From Candidatus Woesearchaeota archaeon (GTDB lineage: Archaea > Nanobdellota > Nanobdellia > Woesearchaeales > ARS49): a stretch of DNA of 64,000 nucleotides. Where the stretch lies: NCBI GenBank assembly GCA_018302815.1, contig JAGVZE010000015.1, positions 2,328-66,327 on the forward strand, read 5' to 3'. How positions within the stretch are numbered: the stretch's first letter is position 1; each line of letters starts with the position of its first letter. This document shows positions 6,857-57,200 of the stretch, piece by piece. Below the pieces are notes generated by a model. The model did not search any database, was not told the DNA's origin, and saw nothing but the letters and a program-made list of their open reading frames with translations. A program made the position numbers and the translations under genes.

Positions 6857-6996
6857 ACAGTCATTAGATGCGAGTATGTATAAAAAGCTAATTGGCGATT
6901 GGAATTTAAGATTAGTTCGTTTGTGATTCTTAATTCTTAGTTAAATTTATAAGGCAACGAGTGCGAGAATTTGAAAGGATAGACGATAATCCTTTT

Positions 6997-7080
6997 GCGG
7001 CCATGGCACAATCCGGTACTGCGTCGGTCTTGAAAACCGATTTCCGAAAGGATATCCCGGTTCAAATCCGGGTGGCCGCG
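6997..7080 (+). tRNA. tRNA-Ser (anticodon TGA)
   Basis: Acceptor GCGGCCA/TGGCCGC, 3-bp D stem GCA/TGC, anticodon arm TCGGT-CTTGAAA-ACCGA, long variable arm TTCCGAAAGGA, T arm CCCGG-TTCAAAT-CCGGG, discriminator G. No encoded CCA. Confidence 0.85.
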
Positions 7081-7130
7081 TATTTTTATTTCTCAAAAAC
7101 TTCGTTATTGTAATTTTTGTGTATATTGTC

Positions 7131-7220
7131 ACCCTGATTTGAACATCTGCGGACTGCTAGGCAGTCCTTGACATCAAAATTCTCGCGCCGCTCGAATTTC
7201 GATGAATCCGGGTGGCCGCG
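7131..7220 (+). repeat. tRNA-Ser(TGA)-attached structured repeat unit (inverted T-loop copy ... 7-bp hairpin ... direct copy of tRNA 3' terminus)
   Basis: 7131-7147 ACCCTGATTTGAACATC is the reverse complement of the tRNA T-loop/3' T-stem (14 of 15 nt). GGACTGCTAGGCAGTCC is a perfect 7-bp hairpin. 7204-7220 AATCCGGGTGGCCGCGT repeats the last 17 nt of the adjacent tRNA. The module 7137-7173 is homologous (inverted) to 22408-22444 at the tRNA-Glu locus. Confidence 0.6.
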
Positions 7221-22082: not shown

Positions 22083-22619
22083 ATACGCCGACGCCAGGAT
22101 TACTCGCAAACCTGCGGTTTGCGAGCTTTCAAATTCGCTTCGCTCATTTGAAATGAATCCAATTGTTCAAATCCCGTAACAAAGGTGACGATACAAAACT
22201 TCGTTTTTGAAATATGCCGACGCGGGGAGTCATACGACGCGAAGGATATCGCGAGGATGTCAACAACCACTCGTTAAAACAAGTGGCGTGTTTGACATAG
22301 TCACAATTAACCAATCCTGCTCGTGGTTGTTGAGCATGCTCGGAATGCCACCTAATTTGGTTTGCACAGGAGCAAACCACGATATAAAACCGGTGGCATT
22401 CCGACATGTCAAGGACTGTCATGCAGTCCGCAGATGTTCAAATCCGGCGTATAACCGCAGATTATGCTAGAACGAAGTTCTTTTGTAAAAATATATGCCG
22501 ACGCCGGGATTACACGCAAACTGCGGTTTGCGAGTTTTCAGGCTCGCTTCGCTCACCTGAAATGAACCTGTGGTTCAAATTCTTGTAGTGTCTGTTGAAA
22601 GAGCTTCGCTCTGAAAGTA
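22083..22619 (-). repeat. tandem array of three tRNA-Glu-associated structured repeat units (about 129, 281 and 127 bp)
   Basis: In the tRNA (minus) orientation each unit ends with AATCC(C/T)GGCGTCGGC(A/G)T, a copy of the tRNA-Glu 3' terminus; in unit B only the last 10 nt (GCGTCGGCAT) match. Each starts with an inverted T-loop segment (GTTCAAAT on the plus strand at about 22176, 22436 and 22573). Units A and C share a 9-bp hairpin (CTCGCAAAC-loop-GTTTGCGAG) and a second hairpin with a conserved loop GAGCGAAGCGA. Unit B carries modules shared with the Ser(TGA) and Ser(GGA) loci. Confidence 0.6.
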
Positions 22620-22694
22620 TGCCGACGCCGGGATTTGAACCCGGGTCTCAGCCGCGAGAGGGCCGAATACTTGACCGGACTATACTACATCGGC
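22620..22694 (-). tRNA. tRNA-Glu (anticodon CTC)
   Basis: Minus-strand sequence GCCGATG-TA-GTAT-AGTCCGGTCAA-GTAT-T-CGGCC-CTCTCGC-GGCTG-AGAC-CCGGG-TTCAAAT-CCCGG-CGTCGGC-A. D-loop AGTCCGG is archaeal Glu-like. D stem is weak (G.U and U.G pairs). No encoded CCA. The ORFs called over it (22595..22780, 22635..22970) are spurious. Confidence 0.75.
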
Positions 22695-22808
22695 TTAATG
22701 GCCCGAAGTCGTCAGGGAACCCTTGCGCTCGGCACCGGATTTCTGACGCGGGCAGTGCTAAAAGACCGCTATCCGTTTAAAAAGGTATCGCTCGAGATTT
22801 CAGGAAAA

Positions 22809-26761: not shown

Positions 26762-26867
26762 CCTCTAAAAAGCATACCTTTATAAAGGGGGAATGTATAT
26801 TTTTTCTCAGTATATCGAATCGAACTCGTTCTTTCGATTATAACTAACCACAACGGGGGAAAACAAC

Positions 26868-27023
26868 ATGGGATTTGGAAATGATTTCGGCGCACCGCGT
26901 GAAATGCACGACGCAAAGTGCAGCGACTGCGGCGCAGAGACAAAAGTTCCGTTCAAACCAACTGACGGAAAACCAGTCTATTGCCGTGAATGCTACGCAA
27001 AGCGAAAGCCACGCAGGTTCTAA
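26868..27023 (+). CDS. small zinc-ribbon protein (51 aa) with basic tail
   Basis: Not in the ORF track (under 60 aa). ATG preceded by GGGGGA RBS-like sequence and a TTATAA box about 27 nt upstream. Encodes MGFGNDFGAPREMHDAKCSDCGAETKVPFKPTDGKPVYCRECYAKRKPRRF with C-x2-C-x17-C-x2-C and a KRKPRRF tail. Confidence 0.5.
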   Translation: MGFGNDFGAPREMHDAKCSDCGAETKVPFKPTDGKPVYCRECYAKRKPRRF

Positions 27024-27095
27024 GACTTAGACCGGCTTCATTTTTCTCTTTTTTATTTTTTCAACATTTTCTCTTAATTCTTAAAAGCAGTAGAT

Positions 27096-27106
27096 TTAAA
27101 AAGTAA
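27096..27106 (+). promoter_or_regulatory. putative archaeal TATA box for tRNA-Ser(GGA)
   Basis: GATTTAAAAAG, A/T-rich box centred about 28 nt upstream of the mature tRNA 5' end. Confidence 0.35.
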
Positions 27107-27128
27107 ACAGAGCGCTCAAAAACCACGT

Positions 27129-27211
27129 GCTGTCGTCGCATAACCTGGTATTGCACAGGCCTGGAAAGCCTGACCCGCAAGGGTATCCCGGTTCAAATCC
27201 GGGCGACAGCG
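27129..27211 (+). tRNA. tRNA-Ser (anticodon GGA)
   Basis: Acceptor GCTGTCG/CGACAGC, 3-bp D stem GCA/TGC, anticodon arm CAGGC-CTGGAAA-GCCTG, long variable arm, T arm CCCGG-TTCAAAT-CCGGG, discriminator G. No encoded CCA. Confidence 0.85.
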
Positions 27212-27257
27212 TATATTTTCAGTTAAATAATTTTGTTCTAATCCGCTATGTTCTTAA

Positions 27258-27316
27258 CCGCCCGGATTTGAACATCCTCGCGATATCCTTCGCGTCGTAT
27301 GACTTCTGGCCACAGC
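27258..27316 (+). repeat. tRNA-Ser(GGA)-attached structured repeat unit
   Basis: CCGCCCGGATTTGAAC is the reverse complement of the tRNA T-loop/3' T-stem (15 nt). The module CATCCTCGCGATATCCTTCGCGTCGTATGAC (27274-27304) is the reverse complement of 22229-22259 in unit B at the tRNA-Glu locus. It ends CCACAGCG, mimicking the tRNA 3' end CGACAGCG. Confidence 0.55.
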
Positions 27317-27348
27317 GTGTAGTTTAGTCAAATAATCTCTTTTCAATT

Positions 27349-27804
27349 CTACTTGCAACTCTTAATCCCAAAAACCCATCTTTTGTCCTTGTCAAGCGAA
27401 CTTTTCCAAAGAGGCAGAAACTCCTTCCAAGAATATGATTCGTTCGGACCGTGCCACGGGTCGATAAGATAAATCTTTGAAGACGTAATAGATTTAACAA
27501 CCGCATAATGTCCCACCTTTTCTTTCGGGTCAAAGAAATTTATGATAAGTTCGAACCCGTCTTTAAGCATACGATTGATTTCACTTTGCTGGGCGTTCCT
27601 TAGAACGATATAGTCCATATTTAGTTTTTCAGCGAGTTGCGGAAACTGCTTATTCCAAGTGCCGCACATAGATGACGAACCCATCAATTTCTTTAACGCC
27701 GTCTCGGACTTTTTTATTCCGAATGACGCGAGAATCATTCGCATGCAAGCGGCGCCGCACGTGTAATCGGTTTGTTGTTTGAAGAAAGGTATTTTCATTG
27801 TCAC
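27349..27804 (-). CDS. papain-like cysteine peptidase, C39-family domain protein
   Basis: QQTDYTCGAACMRMIL (oxyanion Gln plus catalytic Cys) and a downstream GHYAVV His, as in bacteriocin-processing C39 domains. 151 aa, no transporter fusion. Confidence 0.55.
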   Translation of the reverse strand: MTMKIPFFKQQTDYTCGAACMRMILASFGIKKSETALKKLMGSSSMCGTWNKQFPQLAEKLNMDYIVLRNAQQSEINRMLKDGFELIINFFDPKEKVGHYAVVKSITSSKIYLIDPWHGPNESYSWKEFLPLWKSSLDKDKRWVFGIKSCK

Positions 27805-28532: not shown

Positions 28533-28609
28533 TGGTGGCGGTGGCGTGATTTGAACACGCGACAACCGGCTTATGAAACCGGTGCTCTGCCAGGCTGAGC
28601 TACACCGCC
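28533..28609 (-). tRNA. tRNA-Met (anticodon CAT; elongator-type, G1:C72)
   Basis: Minus strand GGCGGTG-TA-GCTC-AGCCTGGCA-GAGC-A-CCGGT-TTCATAA-GCCGG-TTGTC-GCGTG-TTCAAAT-CACGC-CACCGCC-A-CCA. The 3' CCA is genomically encoded. Confidence 0.85.
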
Positions 28610-35684: not shown

Positions 35685-36053
35685 TCAAAACAGCTTGACC
35701 CACTCGACGCCTTTCATCGCTTTTATCTTATCTAGTATTTCTTGAGGCAGTTTGCCCCAAACCTCAAAAACATATTGTCCATTCACAGTCGATGGGCCAA
35801 AAGTCCTGCAAAAAAGAAGCTCAACTATCTCTTTTTTAGTCGAAGGCTCATTCATTTGGACGCGAACGAAATATAACTCTTCCTTATCTCTTTTCAATTT
35901 GCGCTCATCTAAAAATTTGTTCAGATGCTCGGGCAGTTCCAATCTGGGAAGGGTTGTGACGTCGCCTCTCCAACCGCAGAATAGGCACTCATCAATATTT
36001 CCAATACGCTTGAATCCGCCCCACAAACAATCAGGGCAATGCTCTGCGCTCAT
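35685..36053 (-). CDS. zinc-ribbon domain protein, tandem paralog 1 of 3
   Basis: N-terminal CPDC...C-x2-CGW zinc ribbon plus about 80-aa C-terminal domain ending GVEWVKLF. ATG at 36053..36051 overlaps the TGA of the upstream paralog by one nucleotide (TGATG). The ORF track extends to TTG at 36059. Confidence 0.55.
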   Translation of the reverse strand: MSAEHCPDCLWGGFKRIGNIDECLFCGWRGDVTTLPRLELPEHLNKFLDERKLKRDKEELYFVRVQMNEPSTKKEIVELLFCRTFGPSTVNGQYVFEVWGKLPQEILDKIKAMKGVEWVKLF

Positions 36054-36430
36054 CACCAAACCTCGACTTTCTCAACGCCCTTCATGTTCTTCAATTCGGC
36101 AAGCATCGCGCTTGTGGGCTTCTTGTTCATCCTCACAATCACGCAGTCTTTGCCATCGCTAGGCGCATTGCCGCAACCATTCACGTGCAGAACGTCAATA
36201 ACATCAAACTGGATGTCCGCTCCAGCCGCATGATAAATTCTCACGTAAAATAATTTGCCTGCTTTTTTTAATGCTCTATCTTGTGCAAGAGATTCAGTCA
36301 CTTCTTCGGTAAGCCACGAACGGAATTGCTCATCGAGTTTCCCTGTCCAGCCGCACATCTGGCACTGATCATTACCATCCGCTTTTTTGAAATTACCGTC
36401 ACTGCAGTAAGGGCAAAATACGCCGCTCAT
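36053..36430 (-). CDS. zinc-ribbon domain protein, tandem paralog 2 of 3
   Basis: CPYC...C-x2-CGW ribbon. C-terminus GVEKVEVW. Same TGATG junction with the upstream paralog, inside the conserved junction sequence GTTTGGTGATGAGCG. Confidence 0.55.
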   Translation of the reverse strand: MSGVFCPYCSDGNFKKADGNDQCQMCGWTGKLDEQFRSWLTEEVTESLAQDRALKKAGKLFYVRIYHAAGADIQFDVIDVLHVNGCGNAPSDGKDCVIVRMNKKPTSAMLAELKNMKGVEKVEVW

Positions 36431-36843
36431 CACCAAACCTCAATACGCTCGATACCTATTATCGTTTTGGCTTTGGCAAGGCTCTCTTCGCTTGGCCTTG
36501 ATTCGAGCCGCATAAGGAATCCGGAAATTCCTGCGGAACTAGAGCTAGAAGAACTGCGCGCGCCAAGAACGTGCATTAACATAAATTCACTGTCATTCGA
36601 CGCATCTTTCTTCAAATAGCCGCGCACGAAAAACAACGCATTCTGCTTTTTTAAATCACGATCGCCTGAAAGCTGTTCGAGCATCTCCATAGTCGGCATT
36701 TTTCTTGGAAGGCGTTCAAAGCTGCCAATCCAGCCGCACATCTGACACTGGTCGTACGGCGATTTGAGACTGCCAAAACAAGGGCCCGCTGTTACGTGCT
36801 TGAAATCGCTCTGACCGCAGTCAGGACACATAGCTCCGCTCAT
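36430..36843 (-). CDS. zinc-ribbon domain protein, tandem paralog 3 of 3 (first in operon)
   Basis: CPDC...C-x2-CGW ribbon, Ser-rich insertion, C-terminus GIERIEVW. ATG at 36843. Confidence 0.55.
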   Translation of the reverse strand: MSGAMCPDCGQSDFKHVTAGPCFGSLKSPYDQCQMCGWIGSFERLPRKMPTMEMLEQLSGDRDLKKQNALFFVRGYLKKDASNDSEFMLMHVLGARSSSSSSSAGISGFLMRLESRPSEESLAKAKTIIGIERIEVW

Positions 36844-49567: not shown

Positions 49568-52500
49568 CTATTTGCGTCGCGTTCTTGTTCTTGCGGCGTT
49601 TTCCTGCCATTGCCGCAATCTCTTATCAACCCTCGCTAAGTCCTTTTTAATAGCTAGAAGATCCACGTCTTTTTTGTTCGAGCCTTTTTTACGCCTCGCT
49701 CGAATAAATAAGCCAATCAGTCCCATAATTGCAACGAGAGCCAAAAGTTCAGATGATGCGATTTCCCAAAGACCTGCAGTTATAGAGCCAAGATTGCCCT
49801 GCACTTGTCCTGCCGCAACCGAAAGTCCAGTTGGGTTTTCAACAGTAGCTAGGAATCCTGCCGCCAAGGTTATGATTGTTATGGCCAGCGCATTCAATGT
49901 TTTACGCGCAATAGGTTTGTCCAGTTTTCGCAGCTCTATGATGACCATTCCATCAGCTATTTGTTTCACTTTGACAGTCATATCGTCCTTGCCATCATTG
50001 TCTGCGTCGATGAACGCCCATCGTTTTGGCATCAATCGCAGTTGTTTACCAGAAACGCTAAATGTGGCGCAGTTCTTTGCCACTCGCTCGATGTGTAGTT
50101 CGGTTCGAACATCATTTACCGTGAACAGCACGCGGTCTTTAACACGAAGCGCAACAGTAGTCATAACGCTTCCTGCAAGGCGGAATGTTCGAGCTCTGTG
50201 CCGCGTAGATACCTTTTCGTCTTTCTTGCGATTGTATGCCAAGTAATACGCGATGAACAGGATAACTGCCAAAACAATGAGTGAACTCCAACCACTGCCA
50301 AATCCGTTCTCCTGATCCGAAGTTTTCCTATCTAACGCGCGGCCCACCATCTCTCCTATGTCTTTATTCAACGCTCCGGCCGGAGTTTCTCTGTTTAGCA
50401 CATTGGTTGCCTTAACATCATCCGCACTGTTTTTATTCGTGAAGAATCCTGCAGAGTCAGATTTTGTCAGTTCGAGGAGCAGCGATGCTTTCGCCTTTTC
50501 CACGCCAAGCAAAGTCACTTTCAAATCGCGCAAACCATCCGCGTTCAAGTCAACATCAATAGTCTGTCCAGGATATATCGCGAATTCCTGCAATGGATCC
50601 TTGGTTCTGAACCAGACAGGAAGAACTGATGATTCTAGCATTATCAATGAGAATTCTTGCTCGGGAGTCCTAATAATCACCTTATCGAGTTTGCCAAGAT
50701 AGGGCGTTGTGAAATTACCTGCGCTCATGCTGTACGTTTTCGCCTGTCCGCCTGCGCCACCGCCCCCTCCGCCCCCACCAGAACGTCCAGAGCCTGCTGA
50801 AGCGCCCTGTTGGACTGAGAACGCGCTAAATGCGTTAGTTTGGATTGTGAACGTGTCAGCACTTTTGTTTTGTACTGCTGCGTGAGAACTCCATGTTCCT
50901 TCGCACGTTCGCGTTGTGAAATTCCAATTCGCACATTTAACTATGCTTAGCAAATCTTCATTCGTGTAACCAGAACCGGCATAACTTATCACCAGTTCTG
51001 CTGACGTGAAATTGTACGTGCTGTTGAAACCATACGTTATTAGGAAATCTTCAACGGAAGTAAGGTCGACCCCGAGAGTATCATTGTCAAATATCGATAG
51101 GTTGATAGAGTTCAATCTTGTGAGGAGTGCCCCTCCAAACTGAGTGTAGAATAAATCGTATACTATATCAGAAATCTCTTCAGTTGTAGTTCCGTTGAAA
51201 ATCTGCAAGTCTATTCTAGTATTTGTGCTGGCCAGGAATACAGTTAAGTTTGATTCAATCCCATTAAGAGTGCTGTTAACGACATTGAAAGTAATATTCC
51301 TTCTCAAAGTACCTGCGAAGAACAGGTCAATCACAGGAACCACTCCTAGCGTTCCGTTTACCCAGTATGTGATGTTGTGCCGGCCAGGAATCACCACGGT
51401 GTACGCAGTCGGAGATGGAAGAACAATTATTGTTCCATTGGGCAAAGTAATGTTAACGAGCACCGGAACGCCATTTGCGGTCCCGTTAAGCGACACGTTT
51501 TGCCCTACAATAGGATCGTATGGGCTCGTCGTAGCGTTAATAATTGGAACACCACCTATCACGGTGATATTCGCAACGTGCGTGACATTGCTGTTGCCGG
51601 CACTATCATTTATCGTCATGTTAAGCGTATAATTTCCGGGAGTGAGATTCGCAGGAATAGTGAAATTTATCGGCAGCTGCGAACTGCTGTTAATCGTAAT
51701 CGGACCCTGAACCACCGTAACATTTCCTGAGCTGTTGTATAGAATGAATGTTATGTTTATCGGGAACTCACTGCTAGTGAAGTTCACTGAAACATTCTCT
51801 TCAGACTGGTTGTTGATTATTGGTGATTGAGGACTTGTCGTGACATTCGTAATGTTTGGAGGCGCATTCTCTGAAACGTTAAACGAGGTCTGCGTGTCGT
51901 TCACATTCCCGCTCGTGTCATTTGCTATGAATGTGACGTTATATTGCCCTGATAGGTTAGGAATCAGGAACGAAGCATTATACTTGCTCCCGGCCGCAAA
52001 TGAAAGGTTGATTATCTGAGTCGTGCCATTCGGAAACGTTATATTGGCAACAACTTTGTCAACCGCAACATTATCAGTCACATTCACGCTTATCTCAATC
52101 GTCTGGCTCTTGTTGAACGTAGCATTCGGCCGCGGGTCAAAAATGAGCGGAGGCATGATGTCAACAACTGTTATGTTCGCGACGTGAACCTCCACATTGT
52201 TGCCATTCGAATCGTTCACAGTCATATTGAGCGTGTAATTCCCAATGCTCAGGTTCGCAGGAATTGTGAAGTTAATAGGCAGGTCTGAACTGCTGTTCAC
52301 CTGCGTTGGGCCCTGAACAACGATAACGCTTCCAGTGCTATTGTACAATATGAAAGTCACATTAATCGGGAACTCACTGCTCGTGAAGTTCACCGAGACA
52401 TTTTGCTCAGACTGATTGTTCGTTATCGGCGAAGCAGGACTTGTCGTAATGTTTGTGTGCGGAACCGCAAAAGACGCGTTATATTTGTTTCCAACGGCAA

Positions 52501-54115
52501 GCGACAAGTTGACAATCATGCTCGTACCATTCGGGAATGTTATGTTCGCGCGCACTGAATTCACGCCAATGTTGTCAGTCACGTTCGCAGCTATCTCAAT
52601 CGTCTGGCTCGTGTTGAATGTCGAATTCGCAGAAGGACGGACATCGAAAACGAGCGGCGCACTTATGTCTGTCACGTCAAAGAAACCCGTCTCAGTATTG
52701 TTTGAATTGCCCGTCGTGTCGTTCGCCAAAATCCTGAACGTATATGTTCCGTTTAGCTCTGGAGTCGTGAAATTCGCGCTGTACTTGGTCCCATTTTCCA
52801 AAAACAGCTGGATGAGCTGGAACGTGCCGTTGGGGAAGCTGACATTAACAAAGACCGAACCTATGCCAATATTATCAGTCACATTCGCCGACAAGGTTAT
52901 GTTCTGATTCGTGGCAAAATTCGTGCCGTTCATCGGCTGCAAGTCAATAACCTGCGGAGGCTCGCCGTCAGCAGACACGAAAAATGTAGTTTGCGTATTG
53001 TTGAGATTGCCGCTTGTATCGTTCGCGATGAATGTGATGTTGTATTGCCCTGTGAGGTTTGGCACGGTGAATGACGCGTTGTACTTGTTTCCTGCGGCAA
53101 GCGTTAAGTTGATTATTTGGGAGGTTCCGTTGGGGAATGTTATGTTCGCGCGCACAGTGCTTACCTGCACGTTGTCTGTCACGTTCGCTGATATCTCTAT
53201 CGTATCGCTCGTGTTGAATGAGGAGTTTTGCGCTGGGCGAACATCGAAAACGAGCGGAGGAGTGATGTCTATTACTGTTATGTTTGCGACGTGAACCTCC
53301 ACATTGTTGCCGTTCGAATCGTTCACAGTCATATTGAGCGTGTAATTCCCAATGTTCAGGTTCGCAGGAATTGTGAAGTTAATAGGCAGGTCTGAACTGC
53401 TGTTCACCTGCGTTGGGCCCTGAACAACGATAACGCTTCCTGTGCTATTGTACAATATGAAAGTCACATTGATCGGGAACTCATCGCTTGTGAAATTCAC
53501 AGTCACATTCTGAACACTTTGATTGTTAGTTATGGGCGAACCAGGACTTGTTGTAACATTTGTGATATTCGGAGCCCTAAAGTCGCTTGCGACAAAGAAC
53601 GAGGTAGTAGAACCGTTAATGTTTCCGCTGGTGTCGTTTGCGATGAATGTGATGTTGTATTGACCTGTTAGGTTTGGTATGCTGAATGATGAGTTGTACT
53701 TGTTTCCTGTTGTGATCGTCAGGTTTATGAGTTGTGATGTGCCATTGGGGAATGTGATGTTCGCCTGGACAACTCCAACTTGAACGTTGTCGGTCACGTT
53801 CGCAGATATCTCAATAGTGTCGCTCGTGTTGAATGTCGAGTTCGCAGAAGGGCGGACATCGAATACGAGCGGAGGAGTAATGTCGATGACCGTGATGTTC
53901 GCAACGTGCGTCTCAATGCTGTTGCCATTCGAATCATTCACAGTCATATTCAAGACGTAAGTTCCAATGCTAAGATTCGCAGGAATGGTGAAGTTTATCG
54001 GCAACTGTCCGCTGCTGTTGATTTGCGTTGGGCCCTGCACTACGATGACTGCTCCAGTACTGTTATAAAGAATGAACGTAACATTAATCGGGAACTCACT
54101 GCTCGTGAAGTTCAC
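49568..54115 (-). CDS. giant surface adhesin-like protein, C-terminal portion (repeat modules, Gly-rich linker, C-terminal TM anchor)
   Basis: Repeated about 95-aa modules (ANITFPNGT...VTDN...). Extreme density of N-x-S/T sequons. GGGGGGGAGG linker. C-terminal hydrophobic anchor (LLALVAIMGLIGLFI) plus RARRKKG tail. Begins with the same module that ends the upstream ORF. Confidence 0.75.
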   Translation of the reverse strand: MNFTSSEFPINVTFILYNSTGAVIVVQGPTQINSSGQLPINFTIPANLSIGTYVLNMTVNDSNGNSIETHVANITVIDITPPLVFDVRPSANSTFNTSDTIEISANVTDNVQVGVVQANITFPNGTSQLINLTITTGNKYNSSFSIPNLTGQYNITFIANDTSGNINGSTTSFFVASDFRAPNITNVTTSPGSPITNNQSVQNVTVNFTSDEFPINVTFILYNSTGSVIVVQGPTQVNSSSDLPINFTIPANLNIGNYTLNMTVNDSNGNNVEVHVANITVIDITPPLVFDVRPAQNSSFNTSDTIEISANVTDNVQVSTVRANITFPNGTSQIINLTLAAGNKYNASFTVPNLTGQYNITFIANDTSGNLNNTQTTFFVSADGEPPQVIDLQPMNGTNFATNQNITLSANVTDNIGIGSVFVNVSFPNGTFQLIQLFLENGTKYSANFTTPELNGTYTFRILANDTTGNSNNTETGFFDVTDISAPLVFDVRPSANSTFNTSQTIEIAANVTDNIGVNSVRANITFPNGTSMIVNLSLAVGNKYNASFAVPHTNITTSPASPITNNQSEQNVSVNFTSSEFPINVTFILYNSTGSVIVVQGPTQVNSSSDLPINFTIPANLSIGNYTLNMTVNDSNGNNVEVHVANITVVDIMPPLIFDPRPNATFNKSQTIEISVNVTDNVAVDKVVANITFPNGTTQIINLSFAAGSKYNASFLIPNLSGQYNVTFIANDTSGNVNDTQTSFNVSENAPPNITNVTTSPQSPIINNQSEENVSVNFTSSEFPINITFILYNSSGNVTVVQGPITINSSSQLPINFTIPANLTPGNYTLNMTINDSAGNSNVTHVANITVIGGVPIINATTSPYDPIVGQNVSLNGTANGVPVLVNITLPNGTIIVLPSPTAYTVVIPGRHNITYWVNGTLGVVPVIDLFFAGTLRRNITFNVVNSTLNGIESNLTVFLASTNTRIDLQIFNGTTTEEISDIVYDLFYTQFGGALLTRLNSINLSIFDNDTLGVDLTSVEDFLITYGFNSTYNFTSAELVISYAGSGYTNEDLLSIVKCANWNFTTRTCEGTWSSHAAVQNKSADTFTIQTNAFSAFSVQQGASAGSGRSGGGGGGGGAGGQAKTYSMSAGNFTTPYLGKLDKVIIRTPEQEFSLIMLESSVLPVWFRTKDPLQEFAIYPGQTIDVDLNADGLRDLKVTLLGVEKAKASLLLELTKSDSAGFFTNKNSADDVKATNVLNRETPAGALNKDIGEMVGRALDRKTSDQENGFGSGWSSLIVLAVILFIAYYLAYNRKKDEKVSTRHRARTFRLAGSVMTTVALRVKDRVLFTVNDVRTELHIERVAKNCATFSVSGKQLRLMPKRWAFIDADNDGKDDMTVKVKQIADGMVIIELRKLDKPIARKTLNALAITIITLAAGFLATVENPTGLSVAAGQVQGNLGSITAGLWEIASSELLALVAIMGLIGLFIRARRKKGSNKKDVDLLAIKKDLARVDKRLRQWQENAARTRTRRK

Positions 54116-54142
54116 CGAGACATTTTGCTCAGACTGATTGTT

Positions 54143-54218
54143 CGTTATCGGCGAAGCAGGACTTGTCGTAATGTTTGTGTCGTTATCGGCGAAGCAGGAC
54201 TTGTCGTAATGTTTGTGA
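54143..54218 (-). repeat. 38-bp tandem duplication (2 copies) that frameshifts the giant surface-protein gene
   Basis: CGTTATCGGCGAAGCAGGACTTGTCGTAATGTTTGTG(T/A) occurs twice in tandem (54143-54180, 54181-54218). The paralogous module at about 52402-52440 has one copy. 38 is not divisible by 3. The upstream ORF stops at 54145 and the downstream ORF restarts at 54115. Confidence 0.7.
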
Positions 54219-57200
54219 CATTCGGCGCAGAAACATCCTGCGCGATAACTGTGAAATTCGCGCTCAGGAACGTCTGCTTCGGGAATGTTATCGTCTTTGC
54301 AGTTCTGTTCACCACGCTCTCATTAGTTATGTTGAAAGTTCCTGTCGAATTCGTGATAGCCACAAAGAATACGAAATCGCTGTCATTGCCCGGTATGTAC
54401 GCGGAATAATCCGTGAAAACAGTCACGTTCTCGATTCGCACGTTTGCAGTGAATATGGTGAACACGCTGATGTCCCATCGTTTCAATCCTGTGGTGTTTA
54501 CCGCCAAAAGCTCGTCATCACGCAGAGCATCCTTGTGCCTAACTTCAGCAGTTTCATTCACTATGGTGAATGGCGGCACAACTTCAGTGTCATACACTAT
54601 AACATCGTCAGTTAGGACTGTCACAAGCTCAGGAGCTCCAAGCGACGCGTTATCAGTCGCCCATAACTGGCCTGTTGAATTATAAACACGCACTGTGTTG
54701 TTAATCACGCTTGGCTTGTATTGAGAGAGAGTCTCCAAAACGTTGAAATATCTAAGGAAAAGCGACGTATTCAACGAATTATTCAGCTGAGCGGTGTGAT
54801 TTATTGTAATGTTCAGCGTGCTTTGCGGCCCCATGGTGTAGTTTGGCTCTGACTGCCTAAACGCAATCTGCGTCGCTGTGATCTGCGATGGCTGGGCGTG
54901 GAATACTTCAATGCTTGCCGGCTCATCCGAATAGTTATAGAATAATGTCACGTTGATTGTAGTGTTCGACAAAAGGAGCGGCGAGGCGCTGCACCTGACG
55001 CTTAGCGCAAGGAAATTGTTCTGGTCTATCGTGGCTCCATTTATTGAGACGTTCTGCTCGATCACGCTCGGAGAGGTTGAAGCGGTTGAATTTCCGCAGG
55101 ACTCAAAAATATTCTCCAAATTCGTGTTGAGAATGTGGAAGCATAACTGCGGATCGCACGTGTCGTTTTGTGAAACAGACAAATTCAGCCTCAATGCCGC
55201 GTTTCCAAGGAAAGTGTAAACCCTCAGGAAGCTGCAGTTCACATCAGTGTTTGAGCCGCAGAAGAAAAAGTCCGCCAGCGAAACATTCGTCGCGTTCGGC
55301 GAGAGAGCGACTTCAAATGAACGATTCAGCACAGTCGAAGTGTTAGGCTCATCTTTAGATAACCACGTGGTAGAGTTCGATATATTGCTCCCATCGCCTC
55401 CGAAAAGAATGTTGCGCGTCTCTATCAGGTAATTGAGCCAGATGATATTCGCGCTTGTCGAGTTCGTCGCATTTGAATAACTCGCGTCAGAGCACGTTGC
55501 AGTGAAGCTCGTGTTCGCAAATTCTCTGAACGTGTCCAGCGAGCCAGTATAGTTGCCTGTGCTCGCGTTGAACGTCAGCGCAGTTGTGATTGCGGTGTTA
55601 TTTGAAACTACTGAACACGTTCCTGTGCTTATCGAACTATTAGTCAAAACGTCAAAGAAGCGAACCTGGAACGGTATGTAAAATTTGATGCCAAAGTCAG
55701 GATTCTCCTCTGCGGTCGCGGCAGTTCCTTGCAGATACGTCGTCTGATTAATTGAAATCGCAAGCGCGCTCAATCCGGTCACGGTAAAGTTTGTCTGCGC
55801 AGTGTTATTGACATTTCCGAACGTGTCATTCGCTATGAACGTCACATTGTACGTTCCGGCGATGGAGGGAATGACAAAAGAGGCGTTGAAATACGAACCG
55901 CTCAAATTCGTAAGGTTCACAACGTAAATTGTTCCATTCGGGAATGTGATGTTCGCGGTGACGTTTTCTATCGCGTAGTTATCGGTAACATTGGCAGCTA
56001 TCTCTATTGTGCTTGCGGCGGAAAATGACGAATTCACCGCAGGACTTATCGCAGTCACTTGAGGGTAAATCAAGTCAACAACATTGAACGTCCTTGAAGT
56101 CACAAGAGAATTATCGGATGAATCGTAAACAAATATCGTCCAAGTGCCAAGATTATGCGATATGTTCGTCGCGAGCTCATCATCAACAGTCCCGTTAACA
56201 TCCACTGAAATGTTCGCGCTAGTCCTTGTTTGATTCACACCATCGAACCACACAAAGAAAATACTCGATATACCCTGCAAGTTGAATGAGCGAGCGTAAA
56301 TCGTGCTGAAAATCTCAAAAGACTCGGAAAGTGTGGTTCGCGCGGAATCATTGAAGACCGAAACACCGCGCGGAGTAGTGTTTATAGTGATATTGCGAGA
56401 AATGGCAGAATCCACTGATGAATTCGCGAACACACGGGTGAATTCATTATCGCTCAAGGTAACATTGTTCGGAACATCAATACGCACATACAACGTGCTT
56501 TTGCCGCCGAATGGAGCTAATGATCCAACGTCCACAACCGTGTCGCCATCAGTGTCGGTGAGCGCGACAAAATCATCATTAACAAATGTCGCGTTCCAGC
56601 CTTCTATTTGATTGAAGCTGAAATCTATTGCGTCGGACTGATTTCCATTATTTGTGACATTCAATTGGAAATAATTCCTTGTGCCTGCAGTTACTGATGT
56701 GGTGTAGTTTTGGACAAGGATCAATCTATCAAGAATGGTCGTGGTCATCGTGGCATTCGTGAAAATAGCAGAATTGACTGAAGAATTCAATCTGATCGTA
56801 GTGGTATCATTTGTGCCTATGCTTGTTCCCCCTGGGACTTGGATGCGAACAATGATATTTTTTGAATCACCAAAAGTCATGCTGCCAGTGTCTATACTTC
56901 CATCACTGTTCGTGTCAGTTAGTAGAGTGCCGTTCGCGAAAAGAACGGTGATGGTCCAGTTATTGGCGGATGTCGTGTTCACATTCAAAATATCGCTGAA
57001 CGCCTGGAAATTGTACACGGTGAAATTGAATGATACGCTAAGGCCCGCTGAGCCGTTAGCGGACTGATTTTTTGGACTGATGGCGATATCGCTGCTAACT
57101 GTCGTAATATCAGTCACGGTTTTGTTATCTCCGCTTGAAGCGGCAGTGATGTTTCTTGTATCAACAGTACCAGTAGTTGCTGAAACTGGGACATTTAGTC

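Follow-up and report, generated by a model that had tools for sequence, protein, structure and literature searches.

The 59 nt at positions 27258-27316 most likely represent the cargo end of a ~105-nt, gene-less insertion in the 3' flank of tRNA-Ser(GGA). Five such units were found at three tRNA genes of the 64-kb stretch of DNA analyzed here (hereafter the window), and three more in the closest relative lineage. We interpret the units, on a balance that tips modestly in favor of this view, as miniature, non-autonomous cassettes that were inserted by recombination in the T loop. Direct repeats, sites without a unit in relatives, the tandem arrangement at tRNA-Glu, a mosaic of modules and a sharp identity boundary all agree with this interpretation. 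The units are most likely mobile-element debris rather than a signal for tRNA processing.

The window has a G+C content of ~44%, its proteins are similar to proteins of Woesearchaeota-like DPANN archaea, and identical sequence is also present in aquifer metagenomes. ARAGORN and Rfam identified four tRNA genes in it, three of which carry attached units; the flank of the fourth, tRNA-Met, has none. At all three unit loci the unit is located between a convergent protein gene and the tRNA, i.e. in the 3' UTR of that gene.

The unit downstream of tRNA-Ser(GGA)

The unit begins with an AT-rich trailer, the first ~30 nt of which are homologous in a four-way alignment to an older trailer at the far end of the unit, where a convergent C39 peptidase gene has its stop codon (27349-27351). 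Between the two trailers lie an inverted copy of part of the tRNA, a hairpin module that we designate M1, and a displaced copy of the segment from tRNA position A58 to the 3' end (27197-27212 in the live gene; Table 1). The initial annotation had described a 31-nt module, CATCCTCGCGATATCCTTCGCGTCGTATGAC, at 27273-27303 (+), whose exact reverse complement occurs at 22229-22259 in the tRNA-Glu locus, and this was borne out: a search of the window allowing up to three mismatches returned two matches, compared to none in 100 shuffled sequences, and in BLAST the identity of M1 between the Ser(GGA) and Glu loci extended to 33 nt. Likewise, the inverted T-loop copy at 27259-27273 is the exact reverse complement (15/15) of GTTCAAATCCGGGCG at 27191-27205 of tRNA-Ser(GGA), as had been noted. 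GTTCAAATCCGGGCG itself has five matches in the window at up to two mismatches, compared to 0.15 expected, and all of them fall within tRNAs or units.

The annotation further pointed to an imitation of the tRNA 3' end, CCACAGCG, which is indeed present at 27310-27317, one base beyond the end position first given. By itself this 8-mer has little meaning. Because of the alignment with the closest relative, however, it clearly reads as part of a decayed direct duplicate that comprises the tRNA from A58 to its 3' end and ~28-30 nt of trailer. In that relative (L038) the displaced copy, AATCCGTGCGACAGCG+TATATTTT, matches the live 3' end at 15/16 positions, and together with its trailer the L038/L039 copy (AATCCGTGCGACAGCG + TATATTTTAGTCAAG) repeats the live 3' end and trailer almost perfectly in direct orientation. 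The distance and orientation between module and mimic were also found to be alike, 6 nt at the Ser locus and 5 nt at the Glu locus. Both palindromes on account of which the module had been called a candidate protein-binding site, TCGCGA and GATATC, are present, but they are simply parts of one hairpin, CGCGA-TATCCT-TCGCG. M1 is possibly a recombinase or arm-binding site, and under the insertion reading a protein would bind it. The description of a discrete, tRNA-attached unit whose flank copies the tRNA both in inverted and in direct orientation therefore stands.

Table 1. Positions of tRNA genes, units and their parts in the window
Feature	Position	Strand	Basis or remark
Live tRNA-Ser(TGA)	6996..7081	+	ARAGORN, Rfam
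Ser(TGA) unit	7082..7220	+	One unit, B-type modules M3 + M4
Ser(TGA) trailer/spacer	7082-7129		
Ser(TGA) inverted copy, positions 53-67	7130-7144		14/15
Ser(TGA) ACATC-M3	7143-7170		
Ser(TGA) ACATC-M4	about 7171-7204		
Ser(TGA) direct copy, A58 to 3' end	7205-7220		Exact, 16/16
Glu unit U1, A-type, outermost	22084..22212	+	D8, D10; absent from L029
Glu unit U2, B-type	22213..22493	+	Mosaic of M3, M5, M1
U2 3'-end copy	22213-22230		
U2 M1	22229-22259		
U2 nested ~150-nt block	22260-22409		
U2 M3	22406-22432		
U2 T-loop copy	22436-22450		Followed by spacer
Glu unit U3, A-type, nearest tRNA	22494..22617	+	D8; 97.6% identical to L029
U3 copy of tRNA-Glu 3' end, 18 nt	22494-22511		
U3 degenerate T-loop copy GTTCAAAT	~22575-22582		Approximate, worked out by hand
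Live tRNA-Glu(CTC)	22620..22694	-	ARAGORN, Rfam
Live tRNA-Ser(GGA)	27128..27212	+	ARAGORN; Rfam tRNA 56.3 bits
Ser(GGA) unit	27213-27317	+	Trailer, inverted copy, M1, displaced 3' end
AT-rich trailer/spacer with T runs, Ser(GGA) unit	27213..27257	+	Sequence; four-way alignment
Inverted copy of tRNA-Ser(GGA) positions 53-67 (GTTCAAATCCGGGCG + 1 nt)	27258..27273	-	Exact 15/15; identical in L038/L039
Module M1: ACATC head + hairpin CTCGCGATATCCTTCGCGTCG + (T)ATG	27272..27301	+	31-nt module of the initial annotation is 27273-27303
Displaced, decayed direct copy of tRNA positions 58-73 (ACTTCTGGCCACAGCG)	27302..27317	+	12/16 vs live end; L038 alignment
Old trailer	27318..27348	+	Displaced 3' end to C39 peptidase stop codon
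tRNA-Met	28533-28609	-	ARAGORN, Rfam

A common plan at three tRNA genes

All units follow one plan, which in the direction of the tRNA runs from the live gene through an AT-rich trailer or spacer of 35-50 nt, an inverted copy and the cargo to a direct copy. The inverted copy corresponds to positions 53 to 67/68 of the local tRNA and ends in ...GATTTGAAC; where the tRNAs differ from each other, each inverted copy matches its own tRNA (..GGGTG, ..GGGCG and ..CGGCGT). The direct copy extends from A58 of the local tRNA to the 3' end plus 1-2 nt, and the cargo consists of one to four hairpin modules, which in most units (B-type) are headed by ACATC. Units measure ~105-145 nt with the exception of one of 281 nt, the breakpoints at 53 and 57/58 are alike in the five units, and the insertion junction is always located 3' of TTCA in the T loop. 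The tRNA-Glu locus harbors three tandem units that are delimited by four 18-nt copies of TAYGCCGACGCSRGGAKT (direct-repeat family D8). Its units U1 and U3 are 82-87% identical, and the trailer after U2 is homologous to that after Ser(TGA). On the other side of tRNA-Glu, the leader (22695-22775, - strand) is unusually long and GC-rich, with ~75 nt from a TATA-like box to the mature 5' end; a hairpin in this leader folded no better than shuffled sequence (z -0.8).

Under the insertion reading, a site-specific recombinase would make the crossover between positions 57 and 58 of the T loop, and the incoming DNA would carry a replacement 3' end, so that the tRNA stays intact while the resident 3' end is pushed downstream. 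tRNA-targeting integrative elements, archaeal ones among them, are known to behave in this way. The inverted copy would serve the attachment site as a second half-site or as a partner in folding, and it could be the mark of a site that folds as a single strand. Repeated rounds of insertion would produce the three-unit array at tRNA-Glu, M1 would be an arm hairpin of the element beside the crossover, next to the displaced 3' end, and the junction of an excised circle would read ...GCGTCGTATG joined to AATCCGGGCGACAGCGTATATTTT. The identity of M1 at the Ser and Glu loci would then stem from recent copying or from gene conversion between co-resident cassettes.

Hairpin modules and folding of the units

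The A-type cargo of U1 and U3 consists of three hairpins, with two compensatory base pairs between the two units. B-type cargo is a string of hairpin modules, each with an ACATC head; ACATC occurs 9 times in ~330 nt of cargo, compared to a background of 0.0011 per nt. We distinguished M1 (CTCGCGATATCCTTCGCGTCG), M2 (ATCGCAACGCCAAGCGTTGCTCG), M3 (TGCGGACTGCTAGGCAGTCCTTG), M4 (AAAATTCTCGCGCCGCTCGAATTTCG) and M5, a ~150-nt block, and the modules end in a short conserved head and tail, ACATC ... GATG. Their arrangement follows fixed rules: either M1 or M4 always adjoins the displaced 3' end, with ...CG(G/A)ATG joined to AATCC, and M3 always adjoins the inverted copy. Modules are shared across tRNAs, M1 between Ser(GGA) and Glu and M3 between Ser(TGA) and Glu, and the four copies of M1 at the Ser(GGA) and Glu loci of two lineages have an identical 26-nt core. 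The nested block of U2, which is absent from the related Glu locus L029, contains two long hairpins and is edged by 7-nt direct repeats, ATGTCAA; either it was inserted with a target duplication or, where absent, it was lost by microhomology deletion.

The sharing of modules bears on whether a mobile element is needed at all, as template switching at the palindromic T arm during replication, acting independently at each tRNA, could in principle build a similar structure. Such a local error would be in keeping with the naturally palindromic T arm, with the origin of both the direct and the inverted copy in the adjacent tRNA, and with the inclusion of the native trailer in the Ser(GGA) duplication. 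However, M1 and M3 are foreign cargo that each recurs at two different tRNAs, the grammar of modules and the breakpoints are alike in five units, and the Ser(TGA) and Glu U2 trailers are homologous. We consequently consider a purely local origin very unlikely.

All units were predicted to fold more stably than shuffled sequence on both strands, with z values from -2 to -6.4, and in these folds the inverted copy formed the closing stem on both strands. One way to account for the folds is that the units were adopted as RNA-level hairpin stacks, which would serve as terminator, insulator or mRNA stabilizer and stop antisense read-through into the tRNA, like bacterial REP/BIME elements, or which would yield a small RNA antisense to the 3' end of the tRNA. 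Consistent with this idea are the location of the unit between convergent gene and tRNA at all three loci, the T runs in which most units end on the strand of the convergent gene, the folding scores themselves and the one hairpin with two compensatory pairs. We nevertheless regard an RNA-level role as distinctly improbable: relatives do without any unit, folding shows no consistent strand preference, hairpin M3 is broken in L029, and the units have neither an Rfam match nor C/D or H/ACA boxes. Furthermore, the identity of the Ser(GGA) unit between lineages includes the synonymous sites of an adjacent zinc-ribbon (zf) gene (155/156 nt), which speaks for recent transfer and not for selection.

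The closing stem also raises the question of whether the cassettes are hairpin or single-strand mobile elements, which would either move as folded single strands or represent IS200/IS605-like miniature ends, an alternative that we judge unlikely. In the single-strand version, the inverted copy would pair with an element-borne 3'-end copy to form a duplex mimicking the T loop and the 3' T stem, and a host recombinase would join this duplex with the tRNA gene, as for CTX-phi attP and integron attC; in the IS200/IS605-like version, the hairpins would be the element ends and insertion would take place 3' of TTCA in the T loop. The inverted copy follows the sequence of its own tRNA even where the tRNAs diverge from one another, keeps a similar distance of ~35-50 nt to the tRNA end throughout the units and closes the predicted folds on both strands, while the size of the units is plausible for single-stranded circles and the ACATC ... 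GATG heads and tails are reminiscent of cleavage or guide motifs. Against it, no Y1/HUH transposase, Xer-type recombinase or single-stranded replicon was found in the window or the fetched loci, the integron R/L box consensus is absent, and the idea derives from geometry only. In addition, IS200/IS605 elements make no target duplication, whereas the units have direct repeats of 16-18 nt or longer. With a similarly low probability, the units may form an undescribed class of archaeal miniature cassettes, each with a replacement tRNA 3' end and an inverted copy of its target. As single-stranded DNA, or conceivably RNA, such a cassette would fold into a duplex resembling the T loop and 3' T stem, and a host recombinase would splice it into the T loop; it would be an archaeal counterpart of CTX-phi attP or integron attC, and the ACATC-headed hairpins would be exchangeable modules.

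Occupied and empty sites in relatives

Relatives were reached via homologues of the neighboring genes, and the comparison covers a few short contigs from two to four related lineages. In the closest lineage (L038/L039), whose flanking genes have 80-85% nucleotide identity to those of the window, the Ser(GGA) unit was kept and contained an additional 28-nt hairpin module, M2, bounded by ACATC repeats. The Glu locus of the closest lineage (L029) contained only U3 and a short U2, made up of 3'-end copy, M1, M3 and T-loop copy, and had neither U1 nor the ~150-nt nested block; whole modules have thus been gained or lost. More distant relatives had no Ser(GGA) unit. In L026, whose C39 peptidase is 77% identical, tRNA-Ser(GGA) differed from that of the window only at base pair 6:67 and ended 2 nt from the C39 stop codon. 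L008/L009 differed at the same pair only and had a plain 55-nt trailer, and in L008/L009 and L027 (a 61-68% lineage) the tRNA-Ser(GGA) gene was inverted between the same neighbors, again without a unit. Occupied and empty sites with breakpoints at the repeat are therefore both represented among relatives, the empty ones being L026 and L008/L009 for the Ser(GGA) unit and L029 for U1. No variation in the units was observed among same-population contigs (L001-L005, L018-L025 and L033-L037).

These comparisons were informative for the expectation that the module would be conserved beside tRNAs in relatives, which held for the closest lineage, where the module was found next to the same tRNAs (Ser in L038/L039, Glu in L029), and failed for L026 and L008/L009, which lack the unit. 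They also bear on the cis-acting function that the initial annotation had proposed, namely control of 3' processing or termination through pairing of the inverted copy with the nascent T arm and binding of a factor to the module. The 15-nt perfect complementarity of the inverted copy to its own T loop and 3' stem, and the retention of the unit in the closest lineage, are compatible with this model. However, the nearly identical tRNAs of L026 and L008/L009 have no unit beside them, nor has tRNA-Met in the window, and both number and content of modules vary between close lineages. Moreover, the mimic decays like a pseudogene, and hairpins form on both strands with no consistent strand preference. 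The T runs between tRNA end and inverted copy (TTTT at Ser(GGA), TTTTT at Ser(TGA) and only TTT at Glu) would act as terminators upstream of the inverted copy, and most tRNA transcripts should stop before it, since runs of four to five T come first. A role in tRNA 3' processing or termination is accordingly not upheld by the comparison, and the cis-acting model appears highly improbable.

The slot between the AAA ATPase and C39 peptidase genes was rearranged among relatives (window 26762-27128; L026 689-760; L008 2759-2854; L027 2680-2728). The 51-aa zf gene in this slot is present in the window and L038 and absent in L026, and in the window a promoter-like sequence is duplicated on both sides of it; in the 61-68% lineage the slot contains a 144-aa gene, and the tRNA-Ser(GGA) gene is inverted along with its promoter. 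Because L026 also lacks the zf gene, the slot is to all appearances a rearrangement hot spot. The base pair that distinguishes the tRNAs, 6:67 (27133 / 27206 in the window), is C6-G67 in the window and L038 and G6-C67 in L026 and L008/L009, a compensatory double change. C67 is also what the displaced copy of the window has kept, and this would fit the arrival of the whole live tRNA with a young tract. We considered whether the mimic is an ancestral 3' end, given that it shares C67 with the L026 and L008 tRNAs, but the L038 copy has G67 and the agreement is suggestive only; it could reflect coincidence (roughly 8% by our own estimate) or conversion in L038.

Divergence between the window and the closest lineage

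Identity along the Ser(GGA) locus was compared between the window and L038. Identity was 85.5% in the AAA ATPase gene (73% at third codon positions) and 79.7% in the C39 peptidase gene (62% at third codon positions). Between these genes it rose to 95% in the AAA-zf spacer, 155/156 nt in the zf gene, 99% in the zf-tRNA spacer, 100% in tRNA-Ser(GGA) and ~97% in the unit up to the end of M1, and from the first base after M1 it was ~79%. Thus, a tract of ~500-600 nt (~26790-27297), comprising the zf gene, the tRNA and the unit up to M1, is 97-100% identical while its flanks are 80-85% identical, and the drop from ~97-100% to ~79% coincides precisely with the border of cargo and displaced 3' end. 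As the synonymous sites of the zf gene are identical too, the pattern indicates that the tract is young and was recently exchanged between lineages. For the same reason, the high identity of the Ser(GGA) unit could be ruled out as proof of selection on it.

Two aspects of the Ser(GGA) locus argue against the insertion reading. First, its direct duplication extends ~30 nt past the tRNA end, which is longer than typical attachment-site identity. Second, the high-identity tract reaches ~400 nt beyond the 5' side of the tRNA and takes in the zf gene, and it may therefore be the product of homologous recombination and not of integration.

At the Glu locus, identity to L029 falls with distance from the tRNA, from 97.6% in U3 to 89-94% in U2 and 78% in the neighboring gene (67% at third positions). 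This gradient fits the expectation that new arrivals next to the tRNA push older inserts outward, as in tycheposons, where new arrivals displace older ones outward from the tRNA (bioRxiv 10.1101/2020.12.28.424599). Finally, the identity of M1 between the loci runs 3 nt into the window's displaced copy (GTATGACT), unlike the Ser copy of L038 (GGATGAAT), and on this ground the sequences point to recent gene conversion between co-resident cassettes.

Searches for a parent element and for other identities

No ORF was found in the units, and Pfam scans together with a precomputed annotation covering most of the window revealed no recombinase or transposase gene. The cassettes encode nothing and would therefore depend on a recombinase from elsewhere, possibly supplied from another part of the genome. 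In BLAST, the Glu array matched no phage or plasmid. Words of 18-22 nt taken exactly from the module had either chance matches in coding regions or none in species-representative genomes, a metagenome collection and viral contigs, the metagenome word search being a weak one in that the collection did not return the window's own JGI contig. Patterns of the other modules and the junction GATGTTCAAATCCGG had only chance matches in viral contigs, a synteny search with the AAA ATPase in species genomes returned nothing, and a full-length parent element was not found in these searches.

Several other identities were tried and rejected. An unannotated, split or permuted tRNA is not compatible with the cloverleaf drawn by eye, in which the T stem is unpaired and a 3' acceptor strand is missing, and ARAGORN and Rfam gave only the four normal tRNAs. 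In the units, Rfam returned no family: only tRNAs reached the gathering threshold, all else being chance-level hits at E <= 10. A C/D-box or H/ACA RNA was dismissed as the boxes are absent, and an archaeal tRNA intron as the tRNAs upstream of the units are complete and uninterrupted according to ARAGORN and Rfam; inspection by eye for a BHB motif showed only a relaxed, BHB-like pairing (AUCC with GGAU). Classical MITEs, which derive from DDE transposase elements, have element-borne terminal inverted repeats and a target-site duplication of 2-10 bp. In the units, the inverted arms are target-derived and differ between tRNAs, and the direct repeats are 16-18 nt or longer. An IS200/IS605-type miniature element would match the hairpins and the fixed TTCA junction but not the long direct duplication, and a casposon-like origin was rejected since the unit ends, inspected by eye in the Ser(TGA) unit, have no terminal inverted repeats.

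In the Logan collection, contigs from three Rifle aquifer samples (SRR2090162, SRR2090153 and SRR3989344) break off at 27165 within tRNA-Ser(GGA), and a single contig from SRR3989344 does so at 7045 within tRNA-Ser(TGA). These ends resembled integration variants but probably reflect merging in the 31-mer graph with co-occurring relatives that share the tRNA core and have a different acceptor stem.

Relation to known integrative systems

tRNA genes are classic landing sites for mobile DNA, usually of large elements with an integrase or of random debris. In his 2002 work, Williams reportedly described the T stem-loop as a sub-site for tyrosine-recombinase integration into tRNA genes. Integration at this sub-site is known, as are tandem integration and module exchange in archaea (PMC8371274). 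Like tRNA-targeting elements with a tyrosine recombinase (PMC8371274; bioRxiv 10.1101/2020.12.28.424599), the units are inserted directly 3' of an intact tRNA and have a partial direct copy of the 3' part of the tRNA at their far end; tandem inserts are separated only by partial tRNA copies, with the youngest next to the tRNA, and co-resident elements have modules in common. The direct repeat, the intact tRNA and the occupied and empty sites of such elements were all observed here, but no integrase was found in or near the units. Further unlike these elements, the units contain no gene of any kind and are uniformly ~105-145 nt, each has an extra inverted copy of target positions 53-67, and the cargo is built from short, ACATC-headed hairpins.

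The uniform miniature size, the absence of genes and, above all, the tRNA-matched inverted copy are thus the non-standard features, and they also weigh against the insertion reading. An integrase scar accounts for the direct repeat but not for the inverted copy, random decay of large elements should not yield a uniform, tiny plan, double-stranded circles of unit size are unfavorable, and neither a parent element nor a recombinase was seen. By analogy, these features suggest that the attachment site might consist of a pair of inverted arms, which perhaps act in the form of a folded single strand like CTX-phi attP or integron attC. CTX-phi attP(+) and attC likewise have two inverted, target-like copies with a variable loop between them that can fold into a target-mimicking duplex, and once CTX-phi is integrated, both arms persist at a single junction. 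Here, in contrast, no single-stranded replicon, Xer or IntI was seen, the attC R/L consensus is absent, and the domain is Archaea.

Other systems resemble the units in part. Bacterial REP/BIME elements, BOX mosaics and IS200/IS605-derived miniatures are also short intergenic hairpin modules in variable number with a short conserved flanking motif. However, the modules described here occur in one or two copies each in 64 kb and not in high, near-identical copy number, they are tied to tRNA 3' ends with a target duplication, and no RAYT or TnpA was seen. Casposons at tRNA 3' ends generate target duplications of 14-18 nt and tandem arrays that share the duplicated segment; the units differ from them in having no terminal inverted repeats (by eye, Ser(TGA)) and no Cas1 or polymerase gene. 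The Caldiarchaeum tRNA-Thr locus (PMC3293823) shows a similar population-level heterogeneity and tRNA fragments left by integration or recombination, yet there a 1.8-kb element with a recombinase gene, introns or split genes are involved, whereas the units are non-coding and the tRNA is uninterrupted.

Three of four tRNA genes in 64 kb of a small DPANN-type genome are thus accompanied by gene-less cassettes with a fixed grammar and an inverted copy that covaries with the tRNA. If the cassettes are autonomous insertion units, they would point to a recombination mechanism and enzyme so far undescribed in archaea, would show turnover of tRNA flanks and exchange between lineages in reduced genomes, and would represent a plausible first step on the way to T-loop introns and to split tRNA genes. 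Even if no more than scars, they account for odd tRNA-like fragments that can confuse annotation.

Other repeats and structured blocks in the window

An extremely structured intergenic block at 42612-42750 (fold z ~-9 on both strands) has no tRNA beside it. It contains a module that is closed by CATCC...GGATG and in which the T-arm-like GGGTTCGATACCCC precedes GCAGC, then a perfect hairpin of 21 bp (AGAAATTGCCTGAAAACTCGC / GCGAGTTTTCAGGCAATTTCT) with TTATTTTTT after it, and a 20-bp inverted pair interleaved with that hairpin. The block has 14 nt, GCGAGTTTTCAGGC, in common with Glu units U1 and U3 and is perhaps related to the tRNA-linked units as an orphan. Further repeats were noticed in two regions, 51500-54220 and 35685-36843. 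Two giant ORFs of 1515 and 1818 aa contain repeats of 300 nt and 215 nt with 61-91% identity; their counterpart in L022 is a single surface-type protein of 3360 aa. Separately, three tandem ORFs of ~125-137 aa share a 25-nt repeat and have no Pfam match.
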